DNA of 64,000 nt, from contig JAUCBJ010002196.1 in NCBI GenBank assembly GCA_032718475.1, forward strand, positions 1-64,000, in the 5' to 3' direction. The stretch comes from Nemertoderma westbladi (lineage: Eukaryota > Animalia > Xenacoelomorpha). The notes under the pieces were generated by a model. That model was not told the origin of the DNA. It did no database searches and saw only the letters and a list, made by a program, of their open reading frames with translations. The position numbers were made by a program, and so were the translations under genes. Of the stretch, positions 4,384 through 48,699 are shown in pieces; position 1 is the first letter of the stretch; each line of letters begins with the position of its first letter.

Positions 4384-4386
4384 GTA

Positions 4387-19800: not shown

Positions 19801-22800
19801 AGAATACTCTCTACCTGTGTCACACAATACTCTCTGTCTGTGTCACTCAATACTCTCTGCCTGTGTCACACAATACTCTCTGCCTGTGTCACACAATACT
19901 ATCAGCTTGTGTCACACAATACTATCTGCCTGTGTCACACAATACTCACTGATTGTGTCGCACAATACTCTCTGCCTGTGTCACACAATACTCTCTGCTG
20001 GTGTCACACAATACTATCTGCCTGCGTCACACAATACTCCTGCTTGTGTCACACAATACGCTCTGCTTGTGTCACACAATACTCTCAGTCTGTGTCACAC
20101 AAGACGCTCTGAGTGTGTGACTCAATACTCTCTGCCTGTGTCACACAATACTATCAGCTTCTGTCACACAATACACTCTGCCTGTGTCACACAATACTCT
20201 CTGAGTGTGTGACTCAATACTCTCTGCCTGTGTCACACAATACTCTCTGAGTGTGTGACTCAATACTCTCTGCCTGTGTCACACAATACTATCAGCTTGT
20301 GTCACACAATACTCTCTGCCTGTGTCACACAATACTCTCTGATTGTGTCACACAATACTCTCTGTCTGTGTCAAACAATACTCTCTGCTTGTGTCACACA
20401 ATACTCTCTGCCCGTGTCACGCAATACTCTCTGAGTGTGTGAATTAATACTCACTGCCTGTGTCACACAATACTATCAGCTTGTGTCATACAATACTCTC
20501 TGCCTGTGTCACACAATACTATCAGCTTGTGTCATACAATACTCTCTGCCTGTGTCACACAATACTCTCTGATTGTGTCACACAATACTCTCTGTCTGTG
20601 TCACACAATAATCTCTGCTTGTGTCACACAATACTCTCTGCCTGTGTCACACAATACTATCAGCTTGTGTACACAATACTCTCTGTCTGTGTCACACAAT
20701 ACTCTCTGAGTGTGTGACTCAATACTCTCTGCCTGTGTCACACAATACTATCAGCTTGTGTCATACAATACTCTCTGCCTGTGTCACACAATACTATCAG
20801 CTTGTGTCATACAATACTCTCTGCCTGTGTCACACAATACTCTCTGATTGTGTCACACAATACTCTCTGTCTGTGTCACACAATACTCTCTGCTTGTGTC
20901 ACACAATACTCTCTGCCTGTGTCACACAATACTATCAGCTTGTGTCACACAATACTCTCTGTCTGTGTCACACAATACTCTCTGCCTGTGTCACACAATA
21001 CTCCTGCTTGTGTCACACAAGACGCTCTGCTTGTGTCACACAATATTCTCTGTCTGTGTCACACAATACTATCAGCTTGTGTCACACAATACTCTCTGCC
21101 TGTGTCACACAATACTCTATGTCTGTGTCACACAATACTATCAGCTTGTGTCACACAATACTCTCTACCTGTGTCACACAATACTCTCTGAGTGTGTGAA
21201 TTAATACTCACTGCCTGTGTCACACAATACTATCAGCTTGTGTCACACAATACTCTCTGAGTGTGTGACTCAATACTCTCTGCCTGTGTCACACAATACT
21301 CTCTGCTTGTGTCACACAAGACGCTCTGCTTGTGTCACACAATACTCTCTGTCTGTGTCACACAATACGTTCTGCTTGTGTCACACAATACGTACTGCTT
21401 GTGTCACACAATACTCTCTACCTGTGTCACAGAATACTCTCTACCTGTGTCACACAATACTCTCTGTCTGTGTCACACAATACTCTCTGCCTGTGTCACA
21501 CAATACTCTCTGCCTGTGTCACACAATACTATCAGCTTGTGTCACACAATACTATCTGCCTGTGTAACACAATACTCACTGATTGTGTCGCACAATACTC
21601 TCTGCCTGTGTCACACAATACTCTCTGCTGGTGTCACACAATGCTCTCTGCCTGCGTCACACAATACTCCTGCTTGTGTCACACAATACGCTCTGCTTGT
21701 GTCACACAATACTCTCTGCTGGTGTCACACAATGCTCTCTGCCTGCGTCACACAATACTATCAGCTTGTGTCACACAATACTCTCTGAGTGTGTGAATTA
21801 ATACTCACTGCCTGTGTCACACAATACTATCAGCTTGTGTCATACAATACTCTCTGCCTGTGTCACACAATACTATCAGCTTGTGTCATACAATACTCTC
21901 TGCCTGTGTCACACAATACTATCAGCTTGTGTCATACAATACTCTCTGCTTGTGTCACACAATACTTTCTGCCCTTGTCACGCAATACTCTCTGAGTGTG
22001 TGAATTAATACTCACTGCCTGTGTCACACAATACTATCAGCTTGTGTCATACAATACTCTCTGCCTGTGTCACACAATACTATCAGCTTGTGTCATACAA
22101 TACTCTCTGCCTGTGTCACACAATACTATCAGCTTGTGTCATACAATACTCTCTGCTTGTGTCACACAATACTCTCTGCCCTTGTCACGCAATACTCTCT
22201 GAGTGTGTGAATTAATACTCACTGCCTGTGTCACACAATACTATCAGCTTGTGTCATACAATACTCTCTGCCTGTGTCACACAATACTATCAGCTTGTGT
22301 CATACAATACTCTCTGCCTGTGTCACACAATACTATCAGCTTGTGTCATACAATACTCTCTGCCTGTGTCACACAATACTCTCTGATTGTGTCACACAAT
22401 ACTCTCTGTCTGTGTCACACAATAATCTCTGCTTGTGTCACACAATACTCTCTGCCTGTGTCACACAATACTATCAGCTTGTGTCACACAATACTCTCTG
22501 CCTGTGCCACACAATACTATCAGCTTGTGTCATACAATACTCTCTGCTTGTGTCACACAATACTCTCTGCCTGTGTCACACAATGCTCTCTGATTGTGTC
22601 ACACAATACTCTCTGCCTGTGTCACACAATACTCTCTGAGTGTGTGACTCAATACTCTCTGCCTGTGTCACACAATACTATCAGCTTGTGTCACACAATA
22701 CTCTCTGCCTGTGCCACACAATACTATCAGCTTGTGTCATACAATACTCTCTGCCTGTGTCACACAATACTATCAGCTTGTGTCACACAATACTCTCTGC

Positions 22801-25800
22801 CTGTGCCACACAATACTATCAGCTTGTGTCATACAATACTCTCTGCCTGTGCCACACAATACTATCAGCTTGTGTCATACAATACTCTCTGCCTGTGCCA
22901 CACAATACTCTCTGTCTGTGTCACACAATACTCTCTGCCTGTGTCACACAATACTCTCTGCCTGTGTCACACAATACTATCAGCTTGTCTCACACAATAC
23001 TATCAGCTTGTGTCACACAATACTCTCTGCCTGTGCCACACAATACTATCAGCTTGTGTCATACAATACTCTCTGCCTGTGTCACACAATACTATCAGCT
23101 TGTGTCACACAATACTCTCTGCCTGTGCCACACAATACTATCAGCTTGTGTCATACAATACTCTCTGCCTGTGCCACACAATACTCTCTGTCTGTGTCAC
23201 ACAATACTCTCTGCCTGTGTCACACAATACTCTCTGCCTGTGTCACACAATACTATCAGCTTGTCTCACACAATACTATCAGCTTGTGTCACACAATACT
23301 CTCTGCCTGTGCCACACAATACTATCAGCTTGTGTCATACAATACTCTCTGCCTGTGTCACACAATACTATCAGCTTGTGTCACACAATACTCTCTGCCT
23401 GTGCCACACAATACTATCAGCTTGTGTCATACAATACTCTCTGCCTGTGCCACACAATACTCTCTGTCTGTGTCACACAATACTCTCTGCCTGTGTCACA
23501 CAATACTCTCTGCCTGTGTCACACAATACTATCAGCTTGTCTCACACAATACTATCAGCTTGTGTCACACAATACTCTCTGCCTGTGCCACACAATACTA
23601 TCAGCTTGTGTCATACAATACTCTCTGCCTGTGTCACACAATACTATCAGCTTGTGTCACACAATACTCTCTGCCTGTGTCACACAATACTCTCTGCCTG
23701 TGTCACACAATACTCTCTGCCTGTGTCACACAATACTCTCTGCCTGTGTCACACAATACTCTCTACCTGTGTCACACAATAATCTCTGCTTGTGTCACAC
23801 AATACTATCAGCTTGTGTCACACAATACTCTCTGAGTGTGTGACTCAATACTCTCTGCCTGTGTCACACAATACTATCAGCTTGTGTCACACAATACTCT
23901 CTGCCTGTGCCACACAATACTATCAGCTTGTGTCATACAATACTCTCTGCCTGTGTCACACAATACTATCAGCTTGTGTCACACAATACTCTCTGCCTGT
24001 GTCACACAATACTCTCTGCCTGTGTCACACAATACTCTCTACCTGTGTCACACAATAATCTCTGCTTGTGTCACACAATACTCACTGCCTGTGTCACACA
24101 ATACTATCAGCTTGTGTCATACAATACTCTCTGCCTGTGTCACACAATACTATCAGCTTGTGTCATACAATACTCTCTGCCTGTGTCACACAATACTCTC
24201 TGATTGTGTCACACAATACTCTCTGTCTGTGTCACACAATAATCTCTGCTTGTGTCACACAATACTCTCTGCCTGTGTCACACAATACTCTCTGCCTGTG
24301 TCACACAATACTATCAGCTTGTGTCATACAATAATCTCTGCCTGTGTCACACAATACTCTCTGCCTGTGTCACACAATACTATCAGCTTGTCTCACACAA
24401 TACTATCAGCTTGTGTCACACAATACTCTCTGCCTGTGCCACACAATACTATCAGCTTGTGTCATACAATACTCTCTGCCTGTGTCACACAATACTATCA
24501 GCTTGTGTCACACAATACTCTCTGCCTGTGTCACACAATACTCTCTGCCTGTGTCACACAATACTCTCTGCCTGTGTCACACAATACTCTCTGCCTGTGT
24601 CACACAATACTCTCTACCTGTGTCATACAATAATCTCTGCTTGTGTCACACAATACTATCAGCTTGTGTCACACAATACTCTCTGAGTGTGTGACTCAAT
24701 ACTCTCTGCCTGTGTCACACAATACTATCAGCTTGTGTCACACAATACTCTCTGCCTGTGCCACACAATACTATCAGCTTGTGTCATACAATACTCTCTG
24801 CCTGTGTCACACAATACTATCAGCTTGTGTCACACAATACTCTCTGCCTGTGTCACACAATACTCTCTGCCTGTGTCACACAATACTCTCTACCTGTGTC
24901 ACACAATAATCTCTGCTTGTGTCACACAATACTCACTGCCTGTGTCACACAATACTATCAGCTTGTGTCATACAATACTCTCTGCCTGTGTCACACAATA
25001 CTATCAGCTTGTGTCATACAATACTCTCTGCCTGTGTCACACAATACTCTCTGATTGTGTCACACAATACTCTCTGTCTGTGTCACACAATAATCTCTGC
25101 TTGTGTCACACAATACTCTCTGCCTGTGTCACACAATACTCTCTGCCTGTGTCACACAATACTATCAGCTTGTGTCATACAATACTCTCTGCCTGTGTCA
25201 CACAATACTCTCTGCCTGTGACACACAATACTCTCTGCCTGTGACACACAATACTCTCTGCCTGTGACACACAATACTCTCTGCCTGTGTCACACAATAC
25301 TCTCTGATTGTGTCACACAATACTCTCTGCCTGTGCCACACAATACTATCAGCCTGTGTCACACAATAATCTCTGCTTGTGTCACACAATACTCTCTGCC
25401 TGTGTCACACAATACTCTCTGCCCTTGTCACACAATACTCTCTGTCTGTGTCACACAATAATCTCTGCTTGTGTCACACAATACTCTCTGCTTGTGTCAC
25501 ACAATACTATCAGCTTCTGTCACACAATACTCTCTGCCTGTGTCACACAATACTCTCTGAGCGTGTGATTCAATACTCTCTGCCTGTGTCACACAATACT
25601 CTCTGAGTGTGTGACTCAATACTCTCTGCCTGTGTCACACAATACTATCAGCTTGTGTCACACAATACTCTCTGCCTGTGTGACACAATACTCTCTGAGT
25701 GTGTGAATTAATACTCAATGCCTGTGTCACACAATACTATCAGCTTGTGTCACACAATACTCTCTGAGTGTGTGACTCAATACTCTCTGCCTGTGTCACA

Positions 25801-28800
25801 CAATACTCTCTACTTGTGTCACACAAGACGCTCTGCTTGTGTCACACAATACTCTCTGTCTGTGTCACACAATACGTTCTGCTTGTGTCACACAATACGT
25901 TCTGCTTGTGTCACACAATACTCTCTACCTGTGTCACAGAATACTCTCTACCTGTGTCACACAATACTCTCTGTCTGTGTCACTCAATACTCTCTGCCTG
26001 TGTCACACAATAGTCTCTGCCTGTGTCACACAATACTATCAGCTTGTGTCACACAATACTATCTGCCTGTGTCACACAATACTCACTGATTGTGTCGCAC
26101 AATACTCTCTGCCTGTGTCACACAATACTCTCTGCTGGTGTCACACAATACTATCTGCCTGCGTCACACAATACTCCTGCTTGTGTCACACAATACGCTC
26201 TGCTTGTGTCACACAATACTCTCAGTCTGTGTCACACAAGACGCTCTGAGTGTGTGACTCAATACTCTCTGCCTGTGTCACACAATACTATCAGCTTCTG
26301 TCACACAATACACTCTGCCTGTGTCACACAATACTCTCTGAGTGTGTGACTCAATACTCTCTGCCTGTGTCACACAATACTCTCTGAGTGTGTGACTCAA
26401 TACTCTCTGCCTGTGTCACACAATACTATCAGCTTGTGTCACACAATACTCTCTGCCTGTGTCACACAATACTCTCTGATTGTGTCACACAATACTCTCT
26501 GTCTGTGTCAAACAATACTCTCTGCTTGTGTCACACAATACTCTCTGCCCGTGTCACGCAATACTCTCTGAGTGTGTGAATTAATACTCACTGCCTGTGT
26601 CACACAATACTATCAGCTTGTGTCATACAATACTCTCTGCCTGTGTCACACAATACTATCAGCTTGTGTCATACAATACTCTCTGCCTGTGTCACACAAT
26701 ACTCTCTGATTGTGTCACACAATACTCTCTGTCTGTGTCACACAATAATCTCTGCTTGTGTCACACAATACTCTCTGCCTGTGTCACACAATACTATCAG
26801 CTTGTGTACACAATACTCTCTGTCTGTGTCACACAATACTCTCTGAGTGTGTGACTCAATACTCTCTGCCTGTGTCACACAATACTATCAGCTTGTGTCA
26901 TACAATACTCTCTGCCTGTGTCACACAATACTATCAGCTTGTGTCATACAATACTCTCTGCCTGTGTCACACAATACTCTCTGATTGTGTCACACAATAC
27001 TCTCTGTCTGTGTCACACAATACTCTCTGCTTGTGTCACACAATACTCTCTGCCTGTGTCACACAATACTATCAGCTTGTGTCACACAATACTCTCTGTC
27101 TGTGTCACACAATACTCTCTGCCTGTGTCACACAATACTCCTGCTTGTGTCACACAAGACGCTCTGCTTGTGTCACACAATATTCTCTGTCTGTGTCACA
27201 CAATACTATCAGCTTGTGTCACACAATACTCTCTGCCTGTGTCACACAATACTCTATGTCTGTGTCACACAATACTATCAGCTTGTGTCACACAATACTC
27301 TCTACCTGTGTCACACAATACTCTCTGAGTGTGTGAATTAATACTCACTGCCTGTGTCACACAATACTATCAGCTTGTGTCACACAATACTCTCTGAGTG
27401 TGTGACTCAATACTCTCTGCCTGTGTCACACAATACTCTCTGCTTGTGTCACACAAGACGCTCTGCTTGTGTCACACAATACTCTCTGTCTGTGTCACAC
27501 AATACGTTCTGCTTGTGTCACACAATACGTACTGCTTGTGTCACACAATACTCTCTACCTGTGTCACAGAATACTCTCTACCTGTGTCACACAATACTCT
27601 CTGTCTGTGTCACACAATACTCTCTGCCTGTGTCACACAATACTCTCTGCCTGTGTCACACAATACTATCAGCTTGTGTCACACAATACTATCTGCCTGT
27701 GTAACACAATACTCACTGATTGTGTCGCACAATACTCTCTGCCTGTGTCACACAATACTCTCTGCTGGTGTCACACAATGCTCTCTGCCTGCGTCACACA
27801 ATACTCCTGCTTGTGTCACACAATACGCTCTGCTTGTGTCACACAATACTCTCTGCTGGTGTCACACAATGCTCTCTGCCTGCGTCACACAATACTATCA
27901 GCTTGTGTCACACAATACTCTCTGAGTGTGTGAATTAATACTCACTGCCTGTGTCACACAATACTATCAGCTTGTGTCATACAATACTCTCTGCCTGTGT
28001 CACACAATACTATCAGCTTGTGTCATACAATACTCTCTGCCTGTGTCACACAATACTATCAGCTTGTGTCATACAATACTCTCTGCTTGTGTCACACAAT
28101 ACTTTCTGCCCTTGTCACGCAATACTCTCTGAGTGTGTGAATTAATACTCACTGCCTGTGTCACACAATACTATCAGCTTGTGTCATACAATACTCTCTG
28201 CCTGTGTCACACAATACTATCAGCTTGTGTCATACAATACTCTCTGCCTGTGTCACACAATACTATCAGCTTGTGTCATACAATACTCTCTGCTTGTGTC
28301 ACACAATACTCTCTGCCCTTGTCACGCAATACTCTCTGAGTGTGTGAATTAATACTCACTGCCTGTGTCACACAATACTATCAGCTTGTGTCATACAATA
28401 CTCTCTGCCTGTGTCACACAATACTATCAGCTTGTGTCATACAATACTCTCTGCCTGTGTCACACAATACTATCAGCTTGTGTCATACAATACTCTCTGC
28501 CTGTGTCACACAATACTCTCTGATTGTGTCACACAATACTCTCTGTCTGTGTCACACAATAATCTCTGCTTGTGTCACACAATACTCTCTGCCTGTGTCA
28601 CACAATACTATCAGCTTGTGTCACACAATACTCTCTGCCTGTGCCACACAATACTATCAGCTTGTGTCATACAATACTCTCTGCTTGTGTCACACAATAC
28701 TCTCTGCCTGTGTCACACAATACTCTCTGATTGTGTCACACAATACTCTCTGCCTGTGTCACACAATACTCTCTGAGTGTGTGACTCAATACTCTCTGCC

Positions 28801-31800
28801 TGTGTCACACAATACTATCAGCTTGTGTCACACAATACTCTCTGCCTGTGCCACACAATACTATCAGCTTGTGTCATACAATACTCTCTGCCTGTGTCAC
28901 ACAATACTATCAGCTTGTGTCACACAATACTCTCTGCCTGTGCCACACAATACTATCAGCTTGTGTCATACAATACTCTCTGCCTGTGCCACACAATACT
29001 ATCAGCTTGTGTCATACAATACTCTCTGCCTGTGCCACACAATACTCTCTGTCTGTGTCACACAATACTCTCTGCCTGTGTCACACAATACTCTCTGCCT
29101 GTGTCACACAATACTATCAGCTTGTCTCACACAATACTATCAGCTTGTGTCACACAATACTCTCTGCCTGTGCCACACAATACTATCAGCTTGTGTCATA
29201 CAATACTCTCTGCCTGTGTCACACAATACTATCAGCTTGTGTCACACAATACTCTCTGCCTGTGCCACACAATACTATCAGCTTGTGTCATACAATACTC
29301 TCTGCCTGTGCCACACAATACTCTCTGTCTGTGTCACACAATACTCTCTGCCTGTGTCACACAATACTCTCTGCCTGTGTCACACAATACTATCAGCTTG
29401 TCTCACACAATACTATCAGCTTGTGTCACACAATACTCTCTGCCTGTGCCACACAATACTATCAGCTTGTGTCATACAATACTCTCTGCCTGTGTCACAC
29501 AATACTATCAGCTTGTGTCACACAATACTCTCTGCCTGTGCCACACAATACTATCAGCTTGTGTCATACAATACTCTCTGCCTGTGCCACACAATACTCT
29601 CTGTCTGTGTCACACAATACTCTCTGCCTGTGTCACACAATACTCTCTGCCTGTGTCACACAATACTATCAGCTTGTCTCACACAATACTATCAGCTTGT
29701 GTCACACAATACTCTCTGCCTGTGCCACACAATACTATCAGCTTGTGTCATACAATACTCTCTGCCTGTGTCACACAATACTATCAGCTTGTGTCACACA
29801 ATACTCTCTGCCTGTGTCACACAATACTCTCTGCCTGTGTCACACAATACTCTCTGCCTGTGTCACACAATACTCTCTGCCTGTGTCACACAATAATCTC
29901 TGCTTGTGTCACACAATACTATCAGCTTGTGTCACACAATACTCTCTGAGTGTGTGACTCAATACTCTCTGCCTGTGTCACACAATACTATCAGCTTGTG
30001 TCACACAATACTCTCTGCCTGTGCCACACAATACTATCAGCTTGTGTCATACAATACTCTCTGCCTGTGTCACACAATACTATCAGCTTGTGTCACACAA
30101 TACTCTCTGCCTGTGTCACACAATACTCTCTGCCTGTGTCACACAATACTCTCTACCTGTGTCACACAATAATCTCTGCTTGTGTCACACAATACTCACT
30201 GCCTGTGTCACACAATACTATCAGCTTGTGTCATACAATACTCTCTGCCTGTGTCACACAATACTATCAGCTTGTGTCATACAATACTCTCTGCCTGTGT
30301 CACACAATACTCTCTGATTGTGTCACACAATACTCTCTGTCTGTGTCACACAATAATCTCTGCTTGTGTCACACAATACTCTCTGCCTGTGTCACACAAT
30401 ACTCTCTGCCTGTGTCACACAATACTATCAGCTTGTGTCATACAATAATCTCTGCCTGTGTCACACAATACTCTCTGCCTGTGTCACACAATACTATCAG
30501 CTTGTCTCACACAATACTATCAGCTTGTGTCACACAATACTCTCTGCCTGTGCCACACAATACTATCAGCTTGTGTCATACAATACTCTCTGCCTGTGTC
30601 ACACAATACTATCAGCTTGTGTCACACAATACTCTCTGCCTGTGTCACACAATACTCTCTGCCTGTGTCACACAATACTCTCTGCCTGTGTCACACAATA
30701 CTCTCTGCCTGTGTCACACAATACTCTCTACCTGTGTCACACAATAATCTCTGCTTGTGTCACACAATACTATCAGCTTGTGTCACACAATACTCTCTGA
30801 GTGTGTGACTCAATACTCTCTGCCTGTGTCACACAATACTATCAGCTTGTGTCACACAATACTCTCTGCCTGTGCCACACAATACTATCAGCTTGTGTCA
30901 TACAATACTCTCTGCCTGTGTCACACAATACTATCAGCTTGTGTCACACAATACTCTCTGCCTGTGTCACACAATACTCTCTGCCTGTGTCACACAATAC
31001 TCTCTACCTGTGTCACACAATAATCTCTGCTTGTGTCACACAATACTCACTGCCTGTGTCACACAATACTATCAGCTTGTGTCATACAATACTCTCTGCC
31101 TGTGTCACACAATACTATCAGCTTGTGTCATACAATACTCTCTGCCTGTGTCACACAATACTCTCTGATTGTGTCACACAATACTCTCTGTCTGTGTCAC
31201 ACAATAATCTCTGCTTGTGTCACACAATACTCTCTGCCTGTGTCACACAATACTCTCTGCCTGTGTCACACAATACTATCAGCTTGTGTCATACAATACT
31301 CTCTGCCTGTGTCACACAATACTCTCTGCCTGTGACACACAATACTCTCTGCCTGTGACACACAATACTCTCTGCCTGTGACACACAATACTCTCTGCCT
31401 GTGTCACACAATACTCTCTGATTGTGTCACACAATACTCTCTGCCTGTGCCACACAATACTATCAGCCTGTGTCACACAATAATCTCTGCTTGTGTCACA
31501 CAATACTCTCTGCCTGTGTCACACAATACTCTCTGCCCTTGTCACACAATACTCTCTGTCTGTGTCACACAATAATCTCTGCTTGTGTCACACAATACTC
31601 TCTGCTTGTGTCACACAATACTCTCTGCCCTTGTCACACAATACTCTCTGATTGTGTCACACAATACTCTCTGCCTGTGTCACACAATACTATCAGCTTG
31701 TGTCATACAATGCTCTCTGCCTGTGTCACACAATACTCTCTGCCTGTGTCACACAATACTCTCTGATTGTGTCACACAATACTCTCTGTCTGTGTCACAC

Positions 31801-34800
31801 AATAATCTCTGCTTGTGTCACACAATACTCTCTGCCTGTGTCACACAATACTCTCTGATTGTGTCACACAATACTCTCTGTCTGTGTCACACAATAATCT
31901 CTGCTTGTGTCACACAATACTCTCTGCCTGTGTCACACAATACTATCAGCTTGTGTCATACAATACTCTCTGCCTGTGTCACACAATACTCTCTGCCTGT
32001 GTCACACAATACTCTCTGTCTGTGTCACACAATAATCTCTGCTTGTGTCACACAATACTCTCTGCCTGTGTCACACAATACTATCAGCTTGTGTACACAA
32101 TACTCTCTGTCTGTGTCACACAATACTCTCTGAGTGTGTGACTCAATACTCTCTGCCTGTGTCACACAATACTATCAGCTTGTGTCATACAATACTCTCT
32201 GCCTGTGTCACACAATACTATCAGCTTGTGTCATACAATACTCTCTGCCTGTGTCACACAATACTCTCTGATTGTGTCACACAATACTCTCTGTCTGTGT
32301 CACACAATACTCTCTGCTTGTGTCACACAATACTCTCTGCCTGTGTCACACAATACTCTCTGATTGTGTCACACAATACTCTCTGCCTGTGTCACACAAT
32401 ACTATCAGCTTGTGTCATACAATACTCTCTGCCTGTGTCACACAATACTCTCTGCCTGTGTCACACAATACTCTCTGATTGTGTCACACAATACTCTCTG
32501 TCTGTGTCACACAATAATCTCTGCTTGTGTCACACAATACTCTCTGCCTGTGTCACACAATACTCTCTGATTGTGTCACACAATACTCTCTGTCTGTGTC
32601 ACACAATAATCTCTGCTTGTGTCACACAATACTCTCTGCCTGTGTCACACAATACTATCAGCTTGTGTCATACAATACTCTCTGCCTGTGTCACACAATA
32701 CTCTCTGCCTGTGTCACACAATACTCTCTGTCTGTGTCACACAATAATCTCTGCTTGTGTCACACAATACTCTCTGCCTGTGTCACACAATACTATCAGC
32801 TTGTGTACACAATACTCTCTGTCTGTGTCACACAATACTCTCTGAGTGTGTGACTCAATACTCTCTGCCTGTGTCACACAATACTATCAGCTTGTGTCAT
32901 ACAATACTCTCTGCCTGTGTCACACAATACTATCAGCTTGTGTCATACAATACTCTCTGCCTGTGTCACACAATACTCTCTGATTGTGTCACACAATACT
33001 CTCTGTCTGTGTCACACAATACTCTCTGCTTGTGTCACACAATACTCTCTGCCTGTGTCACACAATACTATCAGCTTGTGTCACACAATACTCTCTGTCT
33101 GTGTCACACAATACTCTCTGCCTGTGTCACACAATACTCCTGCTTGTGTCACACAAGACGCTCTGATTGTGTCACACAATATTCTCTGTCTGTGTCACAC
33201 AATACTATCAGCTTGTGTCACACAATACTCTCTGCCTGTGTCACACAATACTCTATGTCTGTGTCACACAATACTATCAGCTTGTGTCACACAATACTCT
33301 CTACCTGTGTCACACAATACTCTCTGAGTGTGTGAATTAATACTCACTGCCTGTGTCACACAATACTATCAGCTTGTGTCACACAATACTCTCTGAGTGT
33401 GTGACTCAATACTCTCTGCCTGTGTCACACAATACTCTCTGCTTGTGTCACACAAGACGCTCTGCTTGTGTCACACAATACTCTCTGTCTGTGTCACACA
33501 ATACGTTCTGCTTGTGTCACACAATACGTACTGCTTGTGTCACACAATACTCTCTACCTGTGTCACAGAATACTCTCTACCTGTGTCACACAATACTCTC
33601 TGTCTGTGTCACACAATACTCTCTGCCTGTGTCACACAATACTCTCTGCCTGTGTCACACAATACTATCAGCTTGTGTCACACAATACTATCTGCCTGTG
33701 TAACACAATACTCACTGATTGTGTCGCACAATACTCTCTGCCTGTGTCACACAATACTCTCTGCTGGTGTCACACAATGCTCTCTGCCTGCGTCACACAA
33801 TACTCCTGCTTGTGTCACACAATACGCTCTGCTTGTGTCACACAATACTCTCAGTCTGTATCACACAAGACGCTCTGAGTGTGTGACTCAATACTCTCTG
33901 CCTGTGTCACACAATACTATCAGCTTCTGTCACACAATACTCTCTGCCTGTGTCACACAATACTCTCTGAGCGTGTGATTCAATACTCTCTGCCTGTGTC
34001 ACACAATACTCTCTGAGTGTGTGACTCAATACTCTCTGCCTGTGTCACACAATACTATCAGCTTGTGTCACACAATACTCTCTGCCTGTGTGACACAATA
34101 CTCTCTGAGTGTGTGAATTAATACTCAATGCCTGTGTCACACAATACTATCAGCTTGTGTCACACAATACTCTCTGAGTGTGTGACTCAATACTCTCTGC
34201 CTGTGTCACACAATACTCTCTACTTGTGTCACACAAGACGCTCTGCTTGTGTCACACAATACTCTCTGTCTGTGTCACACAATACGTTCTGCTTGTGTCA
34301 CACAATACGTTCTGCTTGTGTCACACAATACTCTCTACCTGTGTCACAGAATACTCTCTACCTGTGTCACACAATACTCTCTGTCTGTGTCACTCAATAC
34401 TCTCTGCCTGTGTCACACAATAGTCTCTGCCTGTGTCACACAATACTATCAGCTTGTGTCACACAATACTATCTGCCTGTGTCACACAATACTCACTGAT
34501 TGTGTCGCACAATACTCTCTGCCTGTGTCACACAATACTCTCTGCTGGTGTCACACAATACTATCTGCCTGCGTCACACAATACTCCTGCTTGTGTCACA
34601 CAATACGCTCTGCTTGTGTCACACAATACTCTCAGTCTGTGTCACACAAGACGCTCTGAGTGTGTGACTCAATACTCTCTGCCTGTGTCACACAATACTA
34701 TCAGCTTCTGTCACACAATACACTCTGCCTGTGTCACACAATACTCTCTGAGTGTGTGACTCAATACTCTCTGCCTGTGTCACACAATACTCTCTGAGTG

Positions 34801-37800
34801 TGTGACTCAATACTCTCTGCCTGTGTCACACAATACTATCAGCTTGTGTCACACAATACTCTCTGCCTGTGTCACACAATACTCTCTGATTGTGTCACAC
34901 AATACTCTCTGTCTGTGTCAAACAATACTCTCTGCTTGTGTCACACAATACTCTCTGCCCGTGTCACGCAATACTCTCTGAGTGTGTGAATTAATACTCA
35001 CTGCCTGTGTCACACAATACTATCAGCTTGTGTCATACAATACTCTCTGCCTGTGTCACACAATACTATCAGCTTGTGTCATACAATACTCTCTGCCTGT
35101 GTCACACAATACTCTCTGATTGTGTCACACAATACTCTCTGTCTGTGTCACACAATAATCTCTGCTTGTGTCACACAATACTCTCTGCCTGTGTCACACA
35201 ATACTATCAGCTTGTGTACACAATACTCTCTGTCTGTGTCACACAATACTCTCTGAGTGTGTGACTCAATACTCTCTGCCTGTGTCACACAATACTATCA
35301 GCTTGTGTCATACAATACTCTCTGCCTGTGTCACACAATACTATCAGCTTGTGTCATACAATACTCTCTGCCTGTGTCACACAATACTCTCTGATTGTGT
35401 CACACAATACTCTCTGTCTGTGTCACACAATACTCTCTGCTTGTGTCACACAATACTCTCTGCCTGTGTCACACAATACTATCAGCTTGTGTCACACAAT
35501 ACTCTCTGTCTGTGTCACACAATACTCTCTGCCTGTGTCACACAATACTCCTGCTTGTGTCACACAAGACGCTCTGCTTGTGTCACACAATATTCTCTGT
35601 CTGTGTCACACAATACTATCAGCTTGTGTCACACAATACTCTCTGCCTGTGTCACACAATACTCTATGTCTGTGTCACACAATACTATCAGCTTGTGTCA
35701 CACAATACTCTCTACCTGTGTCACACAATACTCTCTGAGTGTGTGAATTAATACTCACTGCCTGTGTCACACAATACTATCAGCTTGTGTCACACAATAC
35801 TCTCTGAGTGTGTGACTCAATACTCTCTGCCTGTGTCACACAATACTCTCTGCTTGTGTCACACAAGACGCTCTGCTTGTGTCACACAATACTCTCTGTC
35901 TGTGTCACACAATACGTTCTGCTTGTGTCACACAATACGTACTGCTTGTGTCACACAATACTCTCTACCTGTGTCACAGAATACTCTCTACCTGTGTCAC
36001 ACAATACTCTCTGTCTGTGTCACACAATACTCTCTGCCTGTGTCACACAATACTCTCTGCCTGTGTCACACAATACTATCAGCTTGTGTCACACAATACT
36101 ATCTGCCTGTGTAACACAATACTCACTGATTGTGTCGCACAATACTCTCTGCCTGTGTCACACAATACTCTCTGCTGGTGTCACACAATGCTCTCTGCCT
36201 GCGTCACACAATACTCCTGCTTGTGTCACACAATACGCTCTGCTTGTGTCACACAATACTCTCAGTCTGTATCACACAAGACGCTCTGAGTGTGTGACTC
36301 AATACTCTCTGCCTGTGTCACACAATACTATCAGCTTCTGTCACACAATACTCTCTGCCTGTGTCACACAATACTCTCTGAGTGTGTGACTCAATACTCT
36401 CTGCCTGTGTCACACAATACTATCAGCTTGTGTCACACAATACTCTCTGCCTGTGTCACACAATACTCTCTGATTGTGTCACACAATACTCTCTGTCTGT
36501 GTCACACAATACTCTCTGCTTGTGTCACACAATACTCTCTGCCCGTGTCACGCAATACTCTCTGAGTGTGTGAATTAATACTCACTGCCTGTGTCACACA
36601 ATACTATCAGCTTGTGTCATACAATACTCTCTGCCTGTGTCACACAATACTATCAGCTTGTGTCATACAATACTCTCTGCCTGTGTCACACAATACTCTC
36701 TGATTGTGTCACACAATACTCTCTGTCTGTGTCACACAATAAGCTCTGCTTGTGTCACACAATGCTCTCTGCCTGTGTCACACAATACTATCAGCTTGTG
36801 TCACACAATACTCTCTGTCTGTGTCACACAATACTCTCTGAGTGTGTGACTCAATACTCTCTGCCTGTGTCACACAATACTATCAGCTTGTGTCATACAA
36901 TACTCTCTGCCTGTGTCACACAATACTATCAGCTTGTGTCATACAATACTCTCTGCCTGTGTCACACAATACTCTCTGATTGTGTCACACAATACTCTCT
37001 GTCTGTGTCACACAATACTCTCTGCTTGTGTCACACAATACTCTCTGCCTGTGTCACACAATACTATCAGCTTGTGTCACACAATACTCTCTGTCTGTGT
37101 CACACAATACTCTCTGCCTGTGTCACACAATACTCCTGCTTGTGTCACACAAGACGCTCTGCTTGTGTCACACAATACTCTCTGTCTGTGTCTCACAATA
37201 CTATCAGCTTGTGTCACACAATACTCTCTGCCTGTGTCACACAATACTCTATGTCTGTGTCACACAATACTATCAGCTTGTGTCACACAATACTCTCTAC
37301 CTGTGTCACACAATACTCTCTGAGTGTGTGAATTAATACTCACTGCCTGTGTCACACAATACTATCAGCTTGTGTCACACAATACTCTCTGAGTGTGTGA
37401 CTCAATACTCTCTGCCTGTGTCACACAATACTATCAGCTTGTGTCACACAATTCTCTCTGAGTGTGTGACTCAATACTCTCTGCCTGTGTCACACAATAC
37501 TCTCTGCTTGTGTCACACAAGACGCTCTGCTTGTGTCACACAATACTCTCTGTCTGTGTCACACAATACGTTTTGCTTGTGTCACACAATACGTTATGCT
37601 TGTGTCACACAATACTCTCCTCCTGTGTCACAGAATACTCTATACCTGTGTCACACAATACTCTCTGCCTGTGTCACACAATATTCTCTGCCTGTGTCAC
37701 ACAATACTCTCTGCTTGTGTCACACAATACTCTCTGCCTGTGTCACACAATATTCTCTGCATGTGTCACACAATACTATCAGCTTGTGTCATACAATACT

Positions 37801-38976
37801 CTCTGCCTGTGTCACACAATACTCTCTGCCTGTGTCAAACAATACTATCAGCTTGTGTCATACAATACACTCTGCCTGTGTCACACAATACTCACTGATT
37901 GTGTCGCACAATACTCTCTGCCTGTGTCACACAATAATCTCTGCTTGTGACACACAATACTATCTGCCTGTGTCACACAATACTCCTGCTTGTGTCACAC
38001 AATACTCTCTGTCTGTGTCATACAAGACGCTCTGCTTGGGTCACACAATAACCCCTGTATGTTTCACACAATACTATCAGCTTGTGTCACACAATACTCT
38101 CTGCCTGTGTCACACAATACTCTCTGAGTGTGTGACTCAATACTCTCTGCATGTGTCACACAATAGTATCAGCTTGTGTCACACAATACTATCTGCCTGT
38201 GTCACACAATACTATCAGCTTGTGTCACACAATACTCTCTGAGTGTGTGACTCAATACTCTCTGTCTGTGTCACACAATACTCTCTGCTCGTGTCACACA
38301 ATACACTCTGCTTGTGTCACACAATACTCTCTGTCTGTGTCACACAATACGTTTTGCTTGCGTCACACAATACGTTCTGCTTGTGTAACACAATACTCTC
38401 TTCCTGTGTCACAGAATACTCTCTACCTGTATCACACAATACTCTCTGCCTGTGTCACACAATATTATCTGCCTGTGTCACCCAATACTATCAGCTTGTG
38501 TCATACTATACTCTCTGCCTGTGTCACACAATACTCTCTGAATGTGTGACTCAATACTCTATGCATGTGTCACACAATAGTATCAGCTTGTGTCACACAA
38601 TACTATCTGCCTGTGTCACACAATACTATCAGCTTGTGTCACACAATACTCTCTGAGTGTGTGACTCAATACTCTCTGTCTGTGTCACACAATACTCTCT
38701 GCTCGTGTCACACAATACACTCTGCTTGTGTCACACAATACTCTCTGTCTGTGTCACACAATACGTTTTGCTTGTGTCACACAATATTATCTGCCTGTGT
38801 CACCCAATACTATCAGCTTGTGTCATACTATACTCTCTGCCTGTGTCATACAATACTCTCTGCCTGTGTCACACAATACTCACTGATTGTGTCGCACAAT
38901 ACTCTCTGCCTGTGTCACACAATACTGTCTGCTTGTGTCACACAATACTATCTGTCTGTGTCACACAAGACGGTCT
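10813..38976. repeat. 23-bp minisatellite/satellite array, consensus GCCTGTGTCACACAATACTCTCT, with variant units and higher-order duplications
   Basis: Continuous 23-bp periodicity for ~28 kb. Recurring variants (…ACTATCAGCTTG…, …GAGTGTGTGACTC…, …GAGTGTGTGAATTAAT…, …AAGACGCTC…) appear in repeating order. Confidence 0.98.
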
Positions 38977-39505
38977 ATATTGTATTTATTCCAAGCCACG
39001 GGGGCCCATAGTAAAATAGTAGATACATAAACAAAAAGGACATAAACAAAAAGGACATAAACAAACAAATACTTTACAAACAAATACTTTACAAAATACA
39101 CATAGCACACTAGTAATTAATAATAAACACCGAAACTCTAATAGCAATTACGTAGTTAAACGAAAAAGGCTAGTGCTGGTGCAAACTAAATATAACAGAG
39201 TAAGGTCTACATAAATTGTATACACCACCTAAGATAGTGTTGTAAGAATGAGTATTCTATTTAATAGGCTTTGTGAGGATCTATAAGTTATGTGAAAAAA
39301 CATTGGCAAACGTAGTTCGCCAAAAGAAAGTGACATACTTGTAGGTTCTTCACCGGTGAGCCTAGGGATATTAAACAGTAGCCTAGCACAATTATTGTAA
39401 GCTACCCTAATCTTATCGTACGCACGATGTGAGTAGTTCTTACTAGCCCATAGGCTGTTGCAGTATATTGGGGTACAGTAAGCACGAAAAAGTGCAGTTT
39501 TAACA
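38977..39505 (-). mobile_element. 5'-truncated non-LTR retrotransposon (LINE) 3' end: ORF2 C-terminus + 3' UTR; CR1/L2 group, possibly Daphne-like
   Basis: ORF 39229..39510 VKTALFRAYCTPIYCNSLW...IRVAYNNCARLLFNIPR resembles the post-RT C-terminal region of L2-group LINEs. It ends in AATAAATACAATAT on the minus strand. The clade call is from memory of motifs only. Confidence 0.75.
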
Positions 39506-39695
39506 TACATTTATTATAGGAAGGGATCTAGGGGTCTTAACCTCGAATGATAAGTTTATTTTACCGAAAATAACTTATCTTTTATTGGCGCAATTGTAGG
39601 ACTAATCCCATCACATGCGTACTTTTTAACCGGGTAGTGTACAAATTTAAGAATCGCGTAATTTTTCTTGAAATTAATATCTCATATCTCTCCAA

Positions 39696-39738
39696 ACCAC
39701 GTACGCGTTTCGACCTTACTGGGTCTCATCAGCGTGGT
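39696..39738 (-). ncRNA. Minimal type I hammerhead ribozyme, copy 1
   Basis: Minus strand: ACCACG-CTGATGA-GACC-cagtaa-GGTC-GAAA-CGC-GTA^-CGTGGT. Helix I is 6 bp, helix II 4 bp, helix III is the palindrome ACGCGT. Predicted cleavage between 39702 and 39701. Confidence 0.9.
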
Positions 39739-39797
39739 GTCGGATTCGAACCTGGGACCTCGAGGTGGAAGCCGAGACTACAACCACTAGGCCACAG
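39739..39797 (-). promoter_or_regulatory. tRNA-derived internal Pol III promoter (A and B boxes); repeated at 40151-40209, 40563-40621, 40975-41033
   Basis: Minus strand CCTG-TGGCCTAGTGG(A box, 39794-39784)-TTGTAGT-CTCGG-CTTCCAC-CTCGAG-GTCCCA-GGTTCGAATCC(B box, 39752-39742)-GAC. The anticodon-like loop is CTTCCAC. T and acceptor stems are degenerate, so this is not a functional tRNA. Confidence 0.8.
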
Positions 39798-40107
39798 GTT
39801 CTTGAGATATGGAGTATTAATTTCAAAGCCAGCTGCCATTTTATTAGCCCCTGAGTTTTTGATTATTGATAGTAACAATGTGTTGGCAAGCTGTATTTTT
39901 CGAGGTGTTTGTTATTCTACATTTATTATAGGAAGGGATCTAGGGGTCTTAACCTCGAATGATAAGTTTATTTTACCGAAAATAACTTATCTTTTATTGG
40001 CGCAATTGTAGGACTAATCCCATCACATGCGTACTTTTTAACCGGGTAGTGTACAAATTTAAGAATCGCGTAATTTTTCTTGAAATTAATATCTCATATC
40101 TCTCCAA

Positions 40108-40150
40108 ACCACGTACGCGTTTCGACCTTACTGGGTCTCATCAGCGTGGT
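40108..40150 (-). ncRNA. Minimal type I hammerhead ribozyme, copy 2
   Basis: Same sequence as 39696-39738 (+412). Confidence 0.9.
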
Positions 40151-40519
40151 GTCGGATTCGAACCTGGGACCTCGAGGTGGAAGCCGAGACTACAACCACT
40201 AGGCCACAGGTTCTTGAGATATGGAGTATTAATTTCAAAGCCAGCTGCCATTTTATTAGCCCCTGAGTTTTTGATTATTGATAGTAACAATGTGTTGGCA
40301 AGCTGTATTTTTCGAGGTGTTTGTTATTCTACATTTATTATAGGAAGGGATCTAGGGGTCTTAACCTCGAATGATAAGTTTATTTTACCGAAAATAACTT
40401 ATCTTTTATTGGCGCAATTGTAGGACTAATCCCATCACATGCGTACTTTTTAACCGGGTAGTGTACAAATTTAAGAATCGCGTAATTTTTCTTGAAATTA
40501 ATATCTCATATCTCTCCAA

Positions 40520-40562
40520 ACCACGTACGCGTTTCGACCTTACTGGGTCTCATCAGCGTGGT
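40520..40562 (-). ncRNA. Minimal type I hammerhead ribozyme, copy 3
   Basis: Same sequence as 39696-39738 (+824). Confidence 0.9.
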
Positions 40563-40931
40563 GTCGGATTCGAACCTGGGACCTCGAGGTGGAAGCCGAG
40601 ACTACAACCACTAGGCCACAGGTTCTTGAGATATGGAGTATTAATTTCAAAGCCAGCTGCCATTTTATTAGCCCCTGAGTTTTTGATTATTGATAGTAAC
40701 AATGTGTTGGCAAGCTGTATTTTTCGAGGTGTTTGTTATTCTACATTTATTATAGGAAGGGATCTAGGGGTCTTAACCTCGAATGATAAGTTTATTTTAC
40801 CGAAAATAACTTATCTTTTATTGGCGCAATTGTAGGACTAATCCCATCACATGCGTACTTTTTAACCGGGTAGTGTACAAATTTAAGAATCGCGTAATTT
40901 TTCTTGAAATTAATATCTCATATCTCTCCAA

Positions 40932-40974
40932 ACCACGTACGCGTTTCGACCTTACTGGGTCTCATCAGCGTGGT
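40932..40974 (-). ncRNA. Minimal type I hammerhead ribozyme, copy 4
   Basis: Same sequence as 39696-39738 (+1236). Confidence 0.9.
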
Positions 40975-41079
40975 GTCGGATTCGAACCTGGGACCTCGAG
41001 GTGGAAGCCGAGACTACAACCACTAGGCCACAGGTTCTTGAGATATGGAGTATTAATTTCAAAGCCAGCTGCCATTTTA

Positions 41080-42481
41080 TGTCACACAAGACGCTCTGCT
41101 TGTGTCACACAATACTCTATGTCTGTGTCACACAATACGTTCTGCTTGTGTTACACAATACTGTCTACCTGTGTGACACAATACTCTCTGAGTGTGTGAA
41201 TTAATACTCACTGCCTGTGTCACACAATACTCTCGGAGTGTGTGACTCAACACTCTCTGCCTGTGTCACACAATACTATCAGCTTGTGTCACACAATACT
41301 CTCTGTCTGTGTCACACAATACTATTACCTTGTGTCACACAATACTCTCTGCCTGTGTGACACAATACTCTCTGAGTGTGTGAATTAATACTCACTGCCT
41401 GTGTCACACAATACTATCAGCTTGTGTCACACAATACTCTCTGAGTGTGTGACTCAATACTCTCTGCCTGTGTCACACAATACTCTCTGCTTGTGTCACA
41501 CAAGACGCTCTGCTTGTGTCACACAATACTCTATGTCTGTGTCACACAATACGTTCTGCTTGTGTCACACAATACTTTCTACCTGTGTCACAGAATACTC
41601 TCTGCCTGTGTCACACAATACTCTCTGTCTGTGTCACACAATACTCTCTGCCTGTGTCACACAATACTCTCTGCCTGTGTCACACAATACTATCAGCTTG
41701 TGTCTGCGGGTGTCACACAATACTCTCTGCCTGCGTCACACAATACTCCTGCTTCTGTCACACAATACGCTCTGCTTGTGTCACACAATACTCTCAGTCT
41801 GTGTCACACAAGACGCTCTGCTTGGGTCACACAATCCTCCCTGTATGTGTCATACAATACTATCAGCTTCTGTCACGCAATACTCTCTGCCTGTGTCACA
41901 CAATACTCTCTGAGTGTGTGACTCAATACTCTCTGCCTGTGTCACAATACTATCAGCTTGTGTCATACAATACTCTCTGCCTGTGTCACACAATACTCTC
42001 TGCTTGTGTCACACAATACTCTCTGCCTGTGTCACACAATACTCCTGCTTGTGTCACACAAGACGCTCTGCTTGTGTCACACAATACTCTCTGTCTATGT
42101 CACACAATACTATCAGCTTGTGTCACACAATACTCTCTGTCTGTGTCACACAATACTCTCGGAGTGTGTGACTCAACACTCTCTGCCTGTGTCACACAAT
42201 ACTATCAGCTTGTGTCACACAATACTCTCTGTCTGTGTCACACAATACTCTCTACCTGTGTCACAGAATACTCTCTACCTGTGTCACGCAATACTCTCTG
42301 CCTGTGTCACACAATACTCTCTGCCTCTGCCACACAATACTCTCTGCTTGTGTCACACAATACTATCTGCCTGTGACACACAATACTCTCTGCTTGTGCC
42401 ACACAATACTCTCTACCTGTGTCACGCAATATTCTCTGCCTGTGTCACACAATACACTCTGCCTGTGTCACACAATACTCT
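41080..42481. repeat. Continuation of the 23-bp satellite (more diverged edge)
   Basis: Same TGTGTCACACAATACTCTCTGC units with more private substitutions and indels. Confidence 0.96.
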
Positions 42482-43467: not shown

Positions 43468-43750
43468 TAATAATAATAATAATAATAATAATTCAAATTT
43501 ATATAGCATCTTTCTGGGCATTTTTCAAGGTGCTTAAAAACGGACATAATATGTACAGTAAAAACAATATACAATGAAATAAAATTATTGATAGAGTTAG
43601 ATACATATTAATAATTATATTCTTTAGTAAAAAAGTGCGTTTTCAGTTTTGATTAAAAGATGTTAATGATGGGGCTAACCGCACCTCCCGAGGTAACGCG
43701 TTCCACAATCGAGGGGCCGCCACTGAAAAATCACGTCTGCCGTAATTTTC
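43468..43750 (-). mobile_element. L2-clade LINE 3' fragment with (TTA)n tail
   Basis: Minus strand encodes YGRRDFSVAAPRLWNALPREVRLAPSLTSF, then after a frameshift SKLKTHFF, the typical L2 C-terminus. It is followed by ...GCTATATAAAT and a (TTA)n microsatellite tail at 43468-43491. Confidence 0.82.
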
Positions 43751-43822
43751 CAAGGAATTATAAATATATATATATGACGAGTAAGGGTCTTGAGCCACGG
43801 CTAATATAATATAATGTTAGTT

Positions 43823-43865
43823 TACCATATAGCTATTTCACGCTTCCCGAGCGTCTTCACTGGTA
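43823..43865 (-). ncRNA. Hammerhead-like motif with non-canonical core (Penelope-like-element type)
   Basis: Minus strand: TACCA-GTGAAGA-CGCT-cggga-AGCG-T-GAAA-TAGCTA-TA-TGGTA. All three helices are present and helix III is palindromic (ATAGCTAT), but C3 is G and there is an extra T before GAAA. Confidence 0.5.
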
Positions 43866-44014
43866 TATTATTTTAAACACAATATTAATAAAATTTAACT
43901 AAAAAAACCAGTTCAAAGCCTAAAAAGATATATACAAAACCGATACCGTTATGATACTGTACAGTAGTTATGACTATTTTAATAAATTTGGATTTAATTT
44001 GGAATTTATTTCAA

Positions 44015-44369
44015 TTTGGATACTAATACCTAACGATGGGAGGTTAAGCGGGACCGTTTGGACACTAATACCTAACGATGGGAGGTTACGCGGGACCGTT
44101 TGGACACTAATACCTAACGATGGGAGGTTAAGCGGGACCGTTTGGACACTAATACCTAACGATGGGAGGTTACGCGGGACCGTTTGGACACTAATACCTA
44201 AAGGATGGGAGGTTACGCGGGACCGTTTGGACACTAATACCTAACGATGGGAGGTTACGCGGGACCGTTTGGACACTAATACCTAACGATGGGAGGTTAC
44301 GCGGGACCGTTTGGACACTAATACCTAACGATGGGAGGTTACGCGGGACCGTTTGGACACTAATACCTA
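44015..44369. repeat. 42-bp tandem repeat (~8.4 copies) TGGACACTAATACCTAACGATGGGAGGTTACGCGGGACCGTT
   Basis: Direct inspection; one copy has a 1-nt insertion near 44201. Confidence 0.95.
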
Positions 44370-48272: not shown

Positions 48273-48699
48273 CTCAGTAAAGCGGTTAAGAGGAAAGTCA
48301 TACATGACATGACCGGGATAATTTAACTAAACCTGTAACGGCTCATTCCATGAAAAGGTCAACCTCCCCACTAATTTCGAAAAATGAGATGTAGCTTTTA
48401 ATTTATACTTATTTTAGGTCGAAATTTATCGTACTTCATGAATTCAGTGCTAAAAATTGTATCAACACAGGTGGTTTCTCAAAAATAGTCGAATTAAAAA
48501 TTATGCACGTGCTCTGCACAAAATGTGAATAAAAGTGTGCAAAAGTTTCCTTTCCTGTAGGCACTTCCCATGAGCAATAAATTAACATTTCTGAGCATGT
48601 ACCAAATCAAAAACAAACCCATTTTCGAATTTTTTTGGTTTCATTTAATTTCACCAGTGTTTCATTCCTCTGTAATGAAATCGATAAAGTTAATCATGT

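Follow-up and report, generated by a model that had tools for sequence, protein, structure and literature searches.

Animal non-LTR retrozymes are tandem repeats with units some hundreds of bp in length, each with one type I hammerhead, a GC content of 40% and strong self-pairing, and rolling-circle reverse transcription into multimers is predicted for them (Cervera and de la Pena 2020, PMC7229834; PMC7761336). As to the enzyme that returns animal retrozyme circles to the genome, no demonstrated mobilising partner is named in PMC7229834 or PMC7761336. Penelope-like elements, which likewise carry hammerheads in tandem, are the partners favoured in the available parts of the literature, where the partnership is inferred from co-occurrence and homology and no integration product is shown (bioRxiv 10.64898/2026.07.22.740005; PMC11167929). 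For one Penelope-like reverse transcriptase (RT), initiation inside the RNA is described at an AC-rich position that it prefers, along with cutting of AT-rich DNA (same sources).

By the description in the available part of PMC2770079, the Schistosoma Sm-alpha and Sj-alpha repeats are tRNA-related, SINE-like and hammerhead-bearing, in tens of thousands of copies. Sense copies of non-LINE RNAs placed 5' of a truncated LINE, in the same sense and order and inside one duplication, are described as U6/L1, 28S/L1, Alu/L1 and WEIRD/MGL chimeras (PMC11838501, PMC6789731 and PMC2104539), and the word 'circular' occurs 0 times in the main text of PMC11838501. The term circRNA-derived pseudogenes covers copies of circular RNA in genomes, of which most lack poly(A); these come from back-spliced exon circles, with no attached LINE tail described in the available portion of PMC5345220.

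The window analysed here is a stretch of 64,000 nucleotides of Nemertoderma westbladi (contig JAUCBJ010002196.1), in which a hammerhead array runs into the 3' end of a LINE (Table 1). The array shares the retrozyme features listed above and differs from retrozymes, which seem promoterless according to the review PMC7761336, in having tRNA-like A/B boxes and in its physical fusion with a LINE tail, the two lying within a duplication. That the tail comes from an APE-RT LINE also sets the locus apart from Penelope-like elements, and the attached tail distinguishes it from circRNA-derived pseudogenes. Pol III boxes are said to have been described for these Schistosoma repeats by Ferbeyre in 1998, and we know of no LINE fusion for Sm-alpha or Sj-alpha. 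Unlike the chimeric retrogenes, the partner here is a multimer that does not stop where an RNA would naturally end, so that the U6/L1 route, RtcB ligation of a ribozyme end, is unfit for this locus; ligation of a ribozyme-made end was ruled out by the distance from the junction to the cleavage site.

Table 1. Positions of the array, the LINE part and their surroundings in the window
Feature	Position	Strand	Remark
23-bp satellite array hosting the insertion	10817..42481 (10817-38968 and 41080-42481)	.	repeat analysis
Target-site duplication, 5' copy	41080..41097	.	exact part 41080-41093
Retrozyme array, 3 full 412-bp units	41080-40669, 40668-40257, 40256-39845	-	all identical
Array partial unit, 339 bp	39844-39506	-	identical to full units
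Internal promoter in unit 1, tRNA-like	A box 41030-41020, B box 40988-40978	-	recurs each 412 bp
Type I hammerhead 1	40933..40973	-	predicted cleavage after 40938
Hammerhead 2	40521..40561	-	predicted cleavage after 40526
Hammerhead 3	40109..40149	-	predicted cleavage after 40114
Hammerhead 4	39697..39737	-	predicted cleavage after 39702
CAATAAT, the only one in the unit	39862..39868	-	where visible 3' loose ends of the family cluster most
Array/LINE junction	39506..39507	-	2-base microhomology (TA)
APE-RT LINE 3' end, 530 bp	38978..39507	-	run-contig alignments
5 bases between LINE tail and exact duplication	38973..38977	-	extra, or tail plus mismatched part of the 18-bp duplication
Target-site duplication, 3' copy	38959..38976	.	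exact part 38959-38972

The hammerhead array and its family

The retrozyme array comprises 1575 bp on the minus strand (41080 to 39506) with a period of 412. The initial annotation had described ~3.8 identical hammerhead units running into a LINE 3' end, and the array indeed holds 3.82 copies with 0 mismatches in a self-comparison at lag 412 (0/1163 compared bases differ between units). All 4 units share an allele at 39650 that accounts for ~2-6% of the summed depth in three DNA runs, and their identity together with this minority allele points to one template unit. Neither end of the array coincides with ribozyme cleavage, as had also been noted: the array starts 142 nt ahead of the first predicted site and ends, at the LINE junction, 196 nt beyond the last. 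The unit has a GC content of 0.396, one hammerhead and no LTR/PBS/PPT layout, as in animal non-LTR retrozymes, whose tandem units typically measure about 150-450 bp with GC below 45%.

Each of the four hammerhead cores has the type I elements CUGAnGA, GAAA and UH with helices I and II; helix III of hammerhead 1 is just 2 bp, around a palindromic CGCG. Rfam HH9 matched at 26.6 bits (E 1.6e-4), short of its gathering score of 52, a low value in keeping with a short helix III that departs from the Rfam model, and no Rfam family reached its gathering score in the window. Folded as a circle, the unit reaches -103.1 kcal/mol (z -4.5 vs 40 shuffles), with pair probabilities in the predicted circle of 0.76-0.97 for helix I and 0.99-1.0 for helix II. 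The A/B boxes lie just 5' of each hammerhead and were called with what we take to be the tRNA-like promoter consensus; neither ARAGORN nor Rfam called a tRNA in this region. A scarcity of T runs on the sense strand of the unit (1 vs 7 A runs) lay within shuffles (P 0.51) and was dropped. A self-closing contig of 441 nt (X4, an RNA run by guess, under another organism label) was left unused, since tandem DNA closes likewise.

Contigs of the DNA runs show many dispersed copies of the unit, as expected of a retrozyme: 1447-3718 contigs per run aligned to the unit-plus-LINE stretch, ~360 per run lying only partly on it. The family is heterogeneous (in run X1, 1817 of 3718 aligned contigs at 99% or more), and depth on the unit is ~1000 times that on the LINE tail, so nearly all unit copies are without this tail. 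Given this depth gap, the position of the largest visible cluster of family 3' ends away from the junction and the literature preference for Penelope-like elements, the original statement that the fusion directly identifies the autonomous partner is not supported. Random circular permutations had also been named as a sign in favour of the model; the visible 3' ends of the family cluster instead, most of all at CAATAAT (20, 22 and 21 contigs in the three DNA runs), and an internal start like that of the Penelope-like RT would fit such clustering. Ordinary 3' ends of the family also form a lesser cluster, 6-8 nt away from the array/LINE junction. Copies of a SINE partner would share the LINE 3' tail, which the unit does not: blastn found no match between unit and LINE part, a 7-base motif alone being in common. 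A strict hammerhead pattern scan returned 0 loci, and among the 73 + 2 + 27 loci of a looser scan 0/102 match beyond the 34-nt hammerhead core or hold LINE homology.

The LINE part and the insertion site

The LINE fragment contains the last ~110 codons of ORF2 (stop at 39172-39170), then the 3' UTR and the start of a (TAA)n-type tail. Contigs pass 39507 into upstream ORF2 in all three DNA runs that hold the LINE (3/3), and the array is therefore foreign to it. Compared with the run contigs the LINE part carries 6 differences, 5 of them without any supporting contig and four within 53 nt; one base is missing at 39250/39251, which gives a frameshift.

Protein homologues of the fragment numbered 211 at E<=0.001. 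The top-ranked matches P0002 and P0004 are not LINE proteins and were set aside. RVT_1 together with Exo_endo_phos families occurred in 9/10 long homologues scanned, as in an APE-type LINE, while Pfam gave 0 families for the 85-aa fragment itself and a word-indexed protein search with it gave 24 candidates, none passing. In the RT of the long homologues, not of this element itself, the motif G-x-R-Q-G-(G/S)-x-x-S-(P/T) was found in 16/18 and GVPQGS-x-LGP in 0/18. We take the first to be typical of RTE/RTEX, not CR1/L2, and the second of CR1/L2; judged by these motifs, together with a duplication of 14-18 bp, the LINE looks RTE/RTEX-like, and under the same rule the homologues do not support the CR1/L2 group given by the initial annotation.

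The insertion sits in satellite DNA, where the flank duplication is 14 bp exact, or 18 bp with one mismatch, as first reported, and carries the rare AAGACG variant on both sides. That variant is isolated, as had been claimed: it occurs 31 times in ~1285 satellite units, never <250 bp apart. Any overlap >=14 is common in the satellite (8.6% of random position pairs), so the evidence for a duplication rests on the rare variant; exact overlap >=14 with the observed flank was found at 97 of 29,450 satellite positions (0.33%). Base 41080 is common to the duplication and the array, a 1-base microhomology, and TA stands at both array ends, with a chance of 0.09. The satellite of the window held no exact empty-site paralogue, the best flank match to the variant units being 126/138. 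Contigs across either junction were absent from X1, X2 and X3, and no contig of X5 aligned; contigs drop rare variants, and this was weighed neither way.

Origin of the fusion

We tentatively favour one LINE integration with a template switch to retrozyme RNA, probably a circle, ahead of the alternatives discussed below. The LINE endonuclease would have nicked satellite DNA, priming would have occurred on the LINE tail, and the LINE reverse transcriptase would have started on LINE RNA; after 530 bases it would have switched to retrozyme RNA, the predicted 412-nt circle, and copied round it 3.8 times before 5' joining, with the 1-base microhomology seen at that array end, completed the insertion. 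The array is in sense with the LINE, the tail is at the 3' end and one 14-18 bp duplication surrounds both, which is the arrangement of the known 5'-RNA/3'-LINE chimeras; in the available literature, RTE elements are reported with 16-18 bp duplications, matching the length here, and related animal retrozymes are abundant as circular RNAs. The template switch proposed in the initial annotation is supported by the anatomy of a single LINE-made insertion and by a LINE found without the array. Two steps are to be weighed against one because, of the two parts, the LINE seems the older and the array the younger. There are 5-6 differences in the former against none in 1575 bp of the latter (chance 0.001 for parts of equal age and independent differences, 0.02-0.06 when these are taken as 2-3 clustered events), and a frameshift is unexpected in an active cis source, so that the switch calls for LINE RNA that was decayed or a variant. 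The differences without supporting contigs beside a clean array would suit a LINE of greater age that holds a young array. The mismatch in the 18-bp duplication, the junction near the lesser cluster of family 3' ends, homology of 2 bases only and the restriction to one locus also count against the switch, as does TA at both array ends, the pattern expected had the array been inserted later and duplicated 2 bp.

An alternative that we consider unlikely, although it accounts for an aged LINE part beside a pristine array, for the closeness of the junction to ordinary 3' ends of the family and for the single duplication around the whole, is that the array was inserted by the usual route of its family into an older LINE elsewhere, and that a read-through transcript was then retrotransposed in trans via the LINE tail and 5'-truncated within the array. 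It requires four uncut hammerheads in one linear RNA; in the literature, 8/9 Xenopus dimers showed no cleavage and uncut RNA is the main substrate of a Penelope-like RT, so ribozymes may stay uncut. RTE-type LINEs often occur in composites with tRNA-derived heads, according to the available text of the literature. The 8 runs of >=4 T on the sense strand of the LINE part argue against Pol III read-through from the unit promoter, and a Pol II transcript is therefore needed.

Slightly less likely again are two insertions at the present site, in which the 18-bp duplication came from an older, 5'-truncated LINE and a young array arrived later, exactly at the 5' edge of that LINE, duplicating 2 bp (TA). 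The LINE divergence, the duplication mismatch and the TA at both array ends would all follow, the unit family is very abundant, and a genome-wide scan selects rare coincidences; set against this is the need for a same-sense landing within ~2 bases of the LINE edge, roughly estimated, with array density guessed, at order 1e-5 per LINE copy.

Extra DNA can be captured at LINE 5' ends, and repair synthesis during 5' joining could have copied a homogeneous array in the genome or a circle of unit DNA, with no RNA circle involved at this step. The single duplication, the 1-2 base microhomologies and a very abundant donor DNA are in line with such capture, which we nevertheless regard as improbable: orientation would be random, the donor would have to contain four identical units with the minority allele although the family is heterogeneous, and the older-looking LINE part is left unexplained. 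An assembly artefact, a chimeric join or wrong copy number in the repeat-rich satellite region, could yield perfectly identical copies and is very improbable, as a mis-join is not expected to give a rare-variant duplication on both sides, polishing would favour majority alleles where the units have a minority allele, and variation is preserved in neighbouring arrays.

If the template switch took place, a circle seems a considerably more probable template than an uncleaved linear multimer. The latter is kept in play because, with a helix III of 2 bp, cleavage is expected to be poor in a circle with one ribozyme and better in a dimer within a multimer. Template jumping is known for R2 to occur to RNA 3' ends, which a circle does not offer, and this counts against the switch. 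That a LINE RT went round a circular RNA here we hold to be less likely than not. It is unlikely, in our estimate, that a LINE RT copied a ribozyme-made circular RNA by rolling circle in the germ line with this RTE/RTEX-like clade as a real partner of the family, normally priming inside the circle at the single CAAUAAU of the unit; that motif would then mimic the LINE tail, and this locus would be a capture after a start on LINE RNA. More generally the insertion would be an occasional capture and not the normal route of the retrozyme family, and a single site does not show how such repeats usually spread.

Were the two-step history true, the locus would represent an ordinary nested insertion, made by a retrozyme family that is new and has a tRNA-like promoter. 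The fusion addresses the return of animal retrozyme circles to the genome by supplying a specific enzyme family, RNA and junction. If it arose in one step, the physical joining of a multimer to a LINE tail within a single duplication would show directly, at the sequence level, that the enzyme of an APE-type LINE is able to copy such RNA in vivo, over at least 1575 nt without visible error, and with strand displacement too if the template was circular; the locus would then preserve a rare trace of the way in which such repeats spread.

The array, its unit and its setting

The array is 1575 bp long and carries 3.82 copies of the 412-bp hammerhead-bearing unit, with no mismatch at lag 412, inside a 23-bp satellite. 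Each unit contains one type I hammerhead, which Rfam HH9 matches at 26.6 bits (E 1.6e-4), short of its gathering score of 52. Helices I and II of this ribozyme are predicted to form in a circle of the unit, and its helix III has just 2 bp, flanking a palindromic CGCG. tRNA-like A and B boxes, matched to a consensus, lie 42 nt apart immediately 5′ of every ribozyme in the array; ARAGORN called no tRNA in the unit. The unit folds better than its shuffles, both linear (z -4.8, 0 of 100 as good) and circular (z -4.5, 40 shuffles). By sequence it fits what PMC7229834 defines as animal non-LTR retrozymes, and it departs in its promoter-like boxes from retrozymes, which seem to lack promoters according to a review (PMC7761336); the boxes recall Sm-alpha as outlined in PMC2770079.

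Features of the window
Feature	Position	Strand	Content
BEL/Pao LTR retrotransposon	1-10812	-	DUF1759, Peptidase_A17, integrase, DUF5641
MITE-like small element	about 4004-4386		~26-bp terminal inverted repeats; within BEL/Pao pol region
23-bp satellite	10817-38968		higher-order repeats
LINE part	38978-39507	-	530-bp LINE 3′ end, fused to array
Array	41080->39506	-	period 412
L2-like LINE 3′ end	about 43470-43760	-	
Penelope-type hammerhead	43822-43872	-	minimal, decayed
Tandem array	44015-44373		42 bp
Tandem array	45100-46008		221 bp
Tandem array	46200-48273		61 bp
Tandem array	50654-63995		64 bp

At position 39650 all four array copies share an allele with about 2-6% of the depth in three DNA sequencing runs (X1, X2, X3). 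Because the family, the unit's copies at large in the runs, is heterogeneous and this minority allele is in every copy, a single unit was the source of the array, whether rolling-circle copying made the array directly or had earlier made the multimer from which it derives; such an origin fits three of the four real histories considered below.

Neither array end lies at a predicted cleavage site: the first such site is 142 nt inside the start, and the end lies 196 nt beyond the last. Among the loose ends listed for the family (18 of 668), 3′ ends cluster at 39862 (20, 22 and 21 contigs). Smaller groups of 3′ ends stand at 39512 (5, X2) and 39514 (11, X3), and another stands at the query edge, to which it is partly due; the ends listed show no 5′ cluster other than at that edge. 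The clustering argues that the family's ends are not the random circular permutations that the initial annotation named as support for its model. Position 39862 is the sole CAATAAT of the unit, and the same motif starts the LINE tail. Since a Penelope-like reverse transcriptase is described in PMC11167929 as using an AC-rich internal start and an AT-rich target in vitro, the site picks no partner. Unit-length variants were also seen in X1-X3 on 39506-39917 (joints going back 398, 400 and 412), and another joint skips about 84 nt (39509-39592), which would shorten the unit to about 328 nt. A further run, X4, whose organism label differs and which is RNA by guess, yielded just one contig of the unit (about 411 nt) on 39505-39916, 441 nt long and closing on itself.

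The flanks of the block (array plus LINE part) have 14 exact bases in common, or 18 with one mismatch. Any overlap of at least 14 arises in 8.6% of random pairs of satellite positions, so the case for a duplication rests on the rare AAGACG variant, of which about 1285 units hold 31 instances, no two in adjacent units; an exact overlap of at least 14 with the observed flank is found at 97 of 29,450 positions. We accept on this variant the proposed 14-18 bp target-site duplication. RTE elements have reported duplications of 16-18 bp (PMC7245038). The satellite around the insertion lies outside recent higher-order blocks, in which variant spacings of 413, 918, 299 and 368 recur; 41383-41600 matches the start of the satellite array, 10813-11030, at 97%.

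Elsewhere, the BEL/Pao LTR ends are identical at 146/147 positions and its coding region is interrupted by a stop near 5452 and an insertion near 4000-4385. The Penelope-type hammerhead has its first core base changed, lies in AT-rich surroundings and is likely inactive. It is closely followed, in the same sense, by the LINE end labelled L2-like from its motif, a second instance of hammerhead sequence ahead of a LINE tail. A pattern scan of the 221-, 42-, 61- and 64-bp arrays did not find the canonical core. One 51.7-kb viral contig (L080, L081, L093, L094) has several hammerhead-core matches spaced 1.2-1.9 kb, and is otherwise unrelated to the unit.

Identity and abundance of the LINE

The 85-aa LINE fragment had 211 matches at E<=0.001, and nine of the ten long matches scanned were proteins of 816-956 aa with both an endonuclease and a reverse transcriptase. 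G-x-R-Q-G-(G/S)-x-x-S-(P/T), which we take to mark the RTE group (RTEX), occurs in 16 of the 18 long homologues (>=400 aa) among the 150 matches listed, the remaining two being unrelated. CR1/L2 LINEs carry GVPQGS-x-LGP, and the earlier CR1/L2 assignment is not supported by these homologues; labelled reference sequences were sought for the clade and not found, so the RTE/RTEX placement is a lead.

Of eight sequencing runs, none recorded as RNA, X1 and X3 come from one sample and X2 from another study. In each of these three the LINE forms a single main contig. Its alignment ends at 39507, beyond which the contig leaves the array aside and reads in frame as the RKF-type motif that homologues have immediately upstream. 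The LINE therefore exists without the array, and their junction has two common bases. In X2 its tail goes on as TAA repeats. The LINE had a depth of 149-396 on its ORF and up to about 3.4 times as much on its tail, against 1.8e5-8.7e5 on the unit, summed contig depth not being copy number. From this gap of three orders, nearly all units lack this tail, and on abundance the earlier claim that the locus identifies the family's partner does not hold. The LINE would have about 17-34 copies if a 1706-nt contig (depth 4.4 in X2, 21.9 in X3) is single-copy.

Histories of the block

A single LINE integration with a template switch to retrozyme RNA is the likeliest history, at somewhat under even chances, all such gradings being order-of-magnitude guesses rather than measured rates; the mechanism first put forward thus leads the field and is not established. 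A nick within the satellite would be followed by priming on the LINE tail and copying of 530 nt, a switch to retrozyme RNA at the 2-base match, copying of 3.8 units and a 5′ join at a 1-base match. As template we would prefer a circle to a linear multimer by about three to one, since with helix III only 2 bp long, cleavage should be more efficient in the dimer; PMC7229834 states that amphibian retrozymes act as dimers. The block resembles 5′-RNA/3′-LINE chimeras (PMC11838501; PMC2104539) and circRNA pseudogenes (PMC5345220). Among titles and abstract openings in the non-subscription literature, none described a LINE joined to a multimer of retrozyme units. The U6/L1 route of PMC6789731, in which a ribozyme end is ligated, does not fit the array/LINE junction.

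A copied composite, in which the array first inserted into an older LINE copy elsewhere and read-through RNA was then retrotransposed, is unlikely. Slightly less probable still are two insertions, the array arriving later at the 5′ edge of an older LINE, which suits the TA at both array ends (chance 0.09) and the mismatch in the 18-bp duplication. Relative age tells against a single integration: the LINE part differs from run contigs at 39056, 39099, 39244, 39250, 39289 and 39296, the first matching part of the X1 depth and the other five having no supporting contig; the loss of one base at 39250/39251 causes a frameshift, and the array has zero differences. Were both parts equally old, the chance of five independent changes all falling in the 530-bp part would be 0.001, or 0.06 or 0.016 if the four within 53 nt are counted so as to give two or three events. 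Since contigs lose rare variants and the runs may stem from another individual than the one assembled, the source RNA may have been a variant or decayed one. DNA capture, the repair copying of unit DNA, is improbable, and an assembly artefact very improbable.

The locus is real and unusual. Penelope-like partners are favoured by a 2026 bioRxiv preprint (10.64898/2026.07.22.740005) and by PMC7229834, and that the array is a rolling-circle product of some enzyme is likelier than that this LINE is the enzyme.
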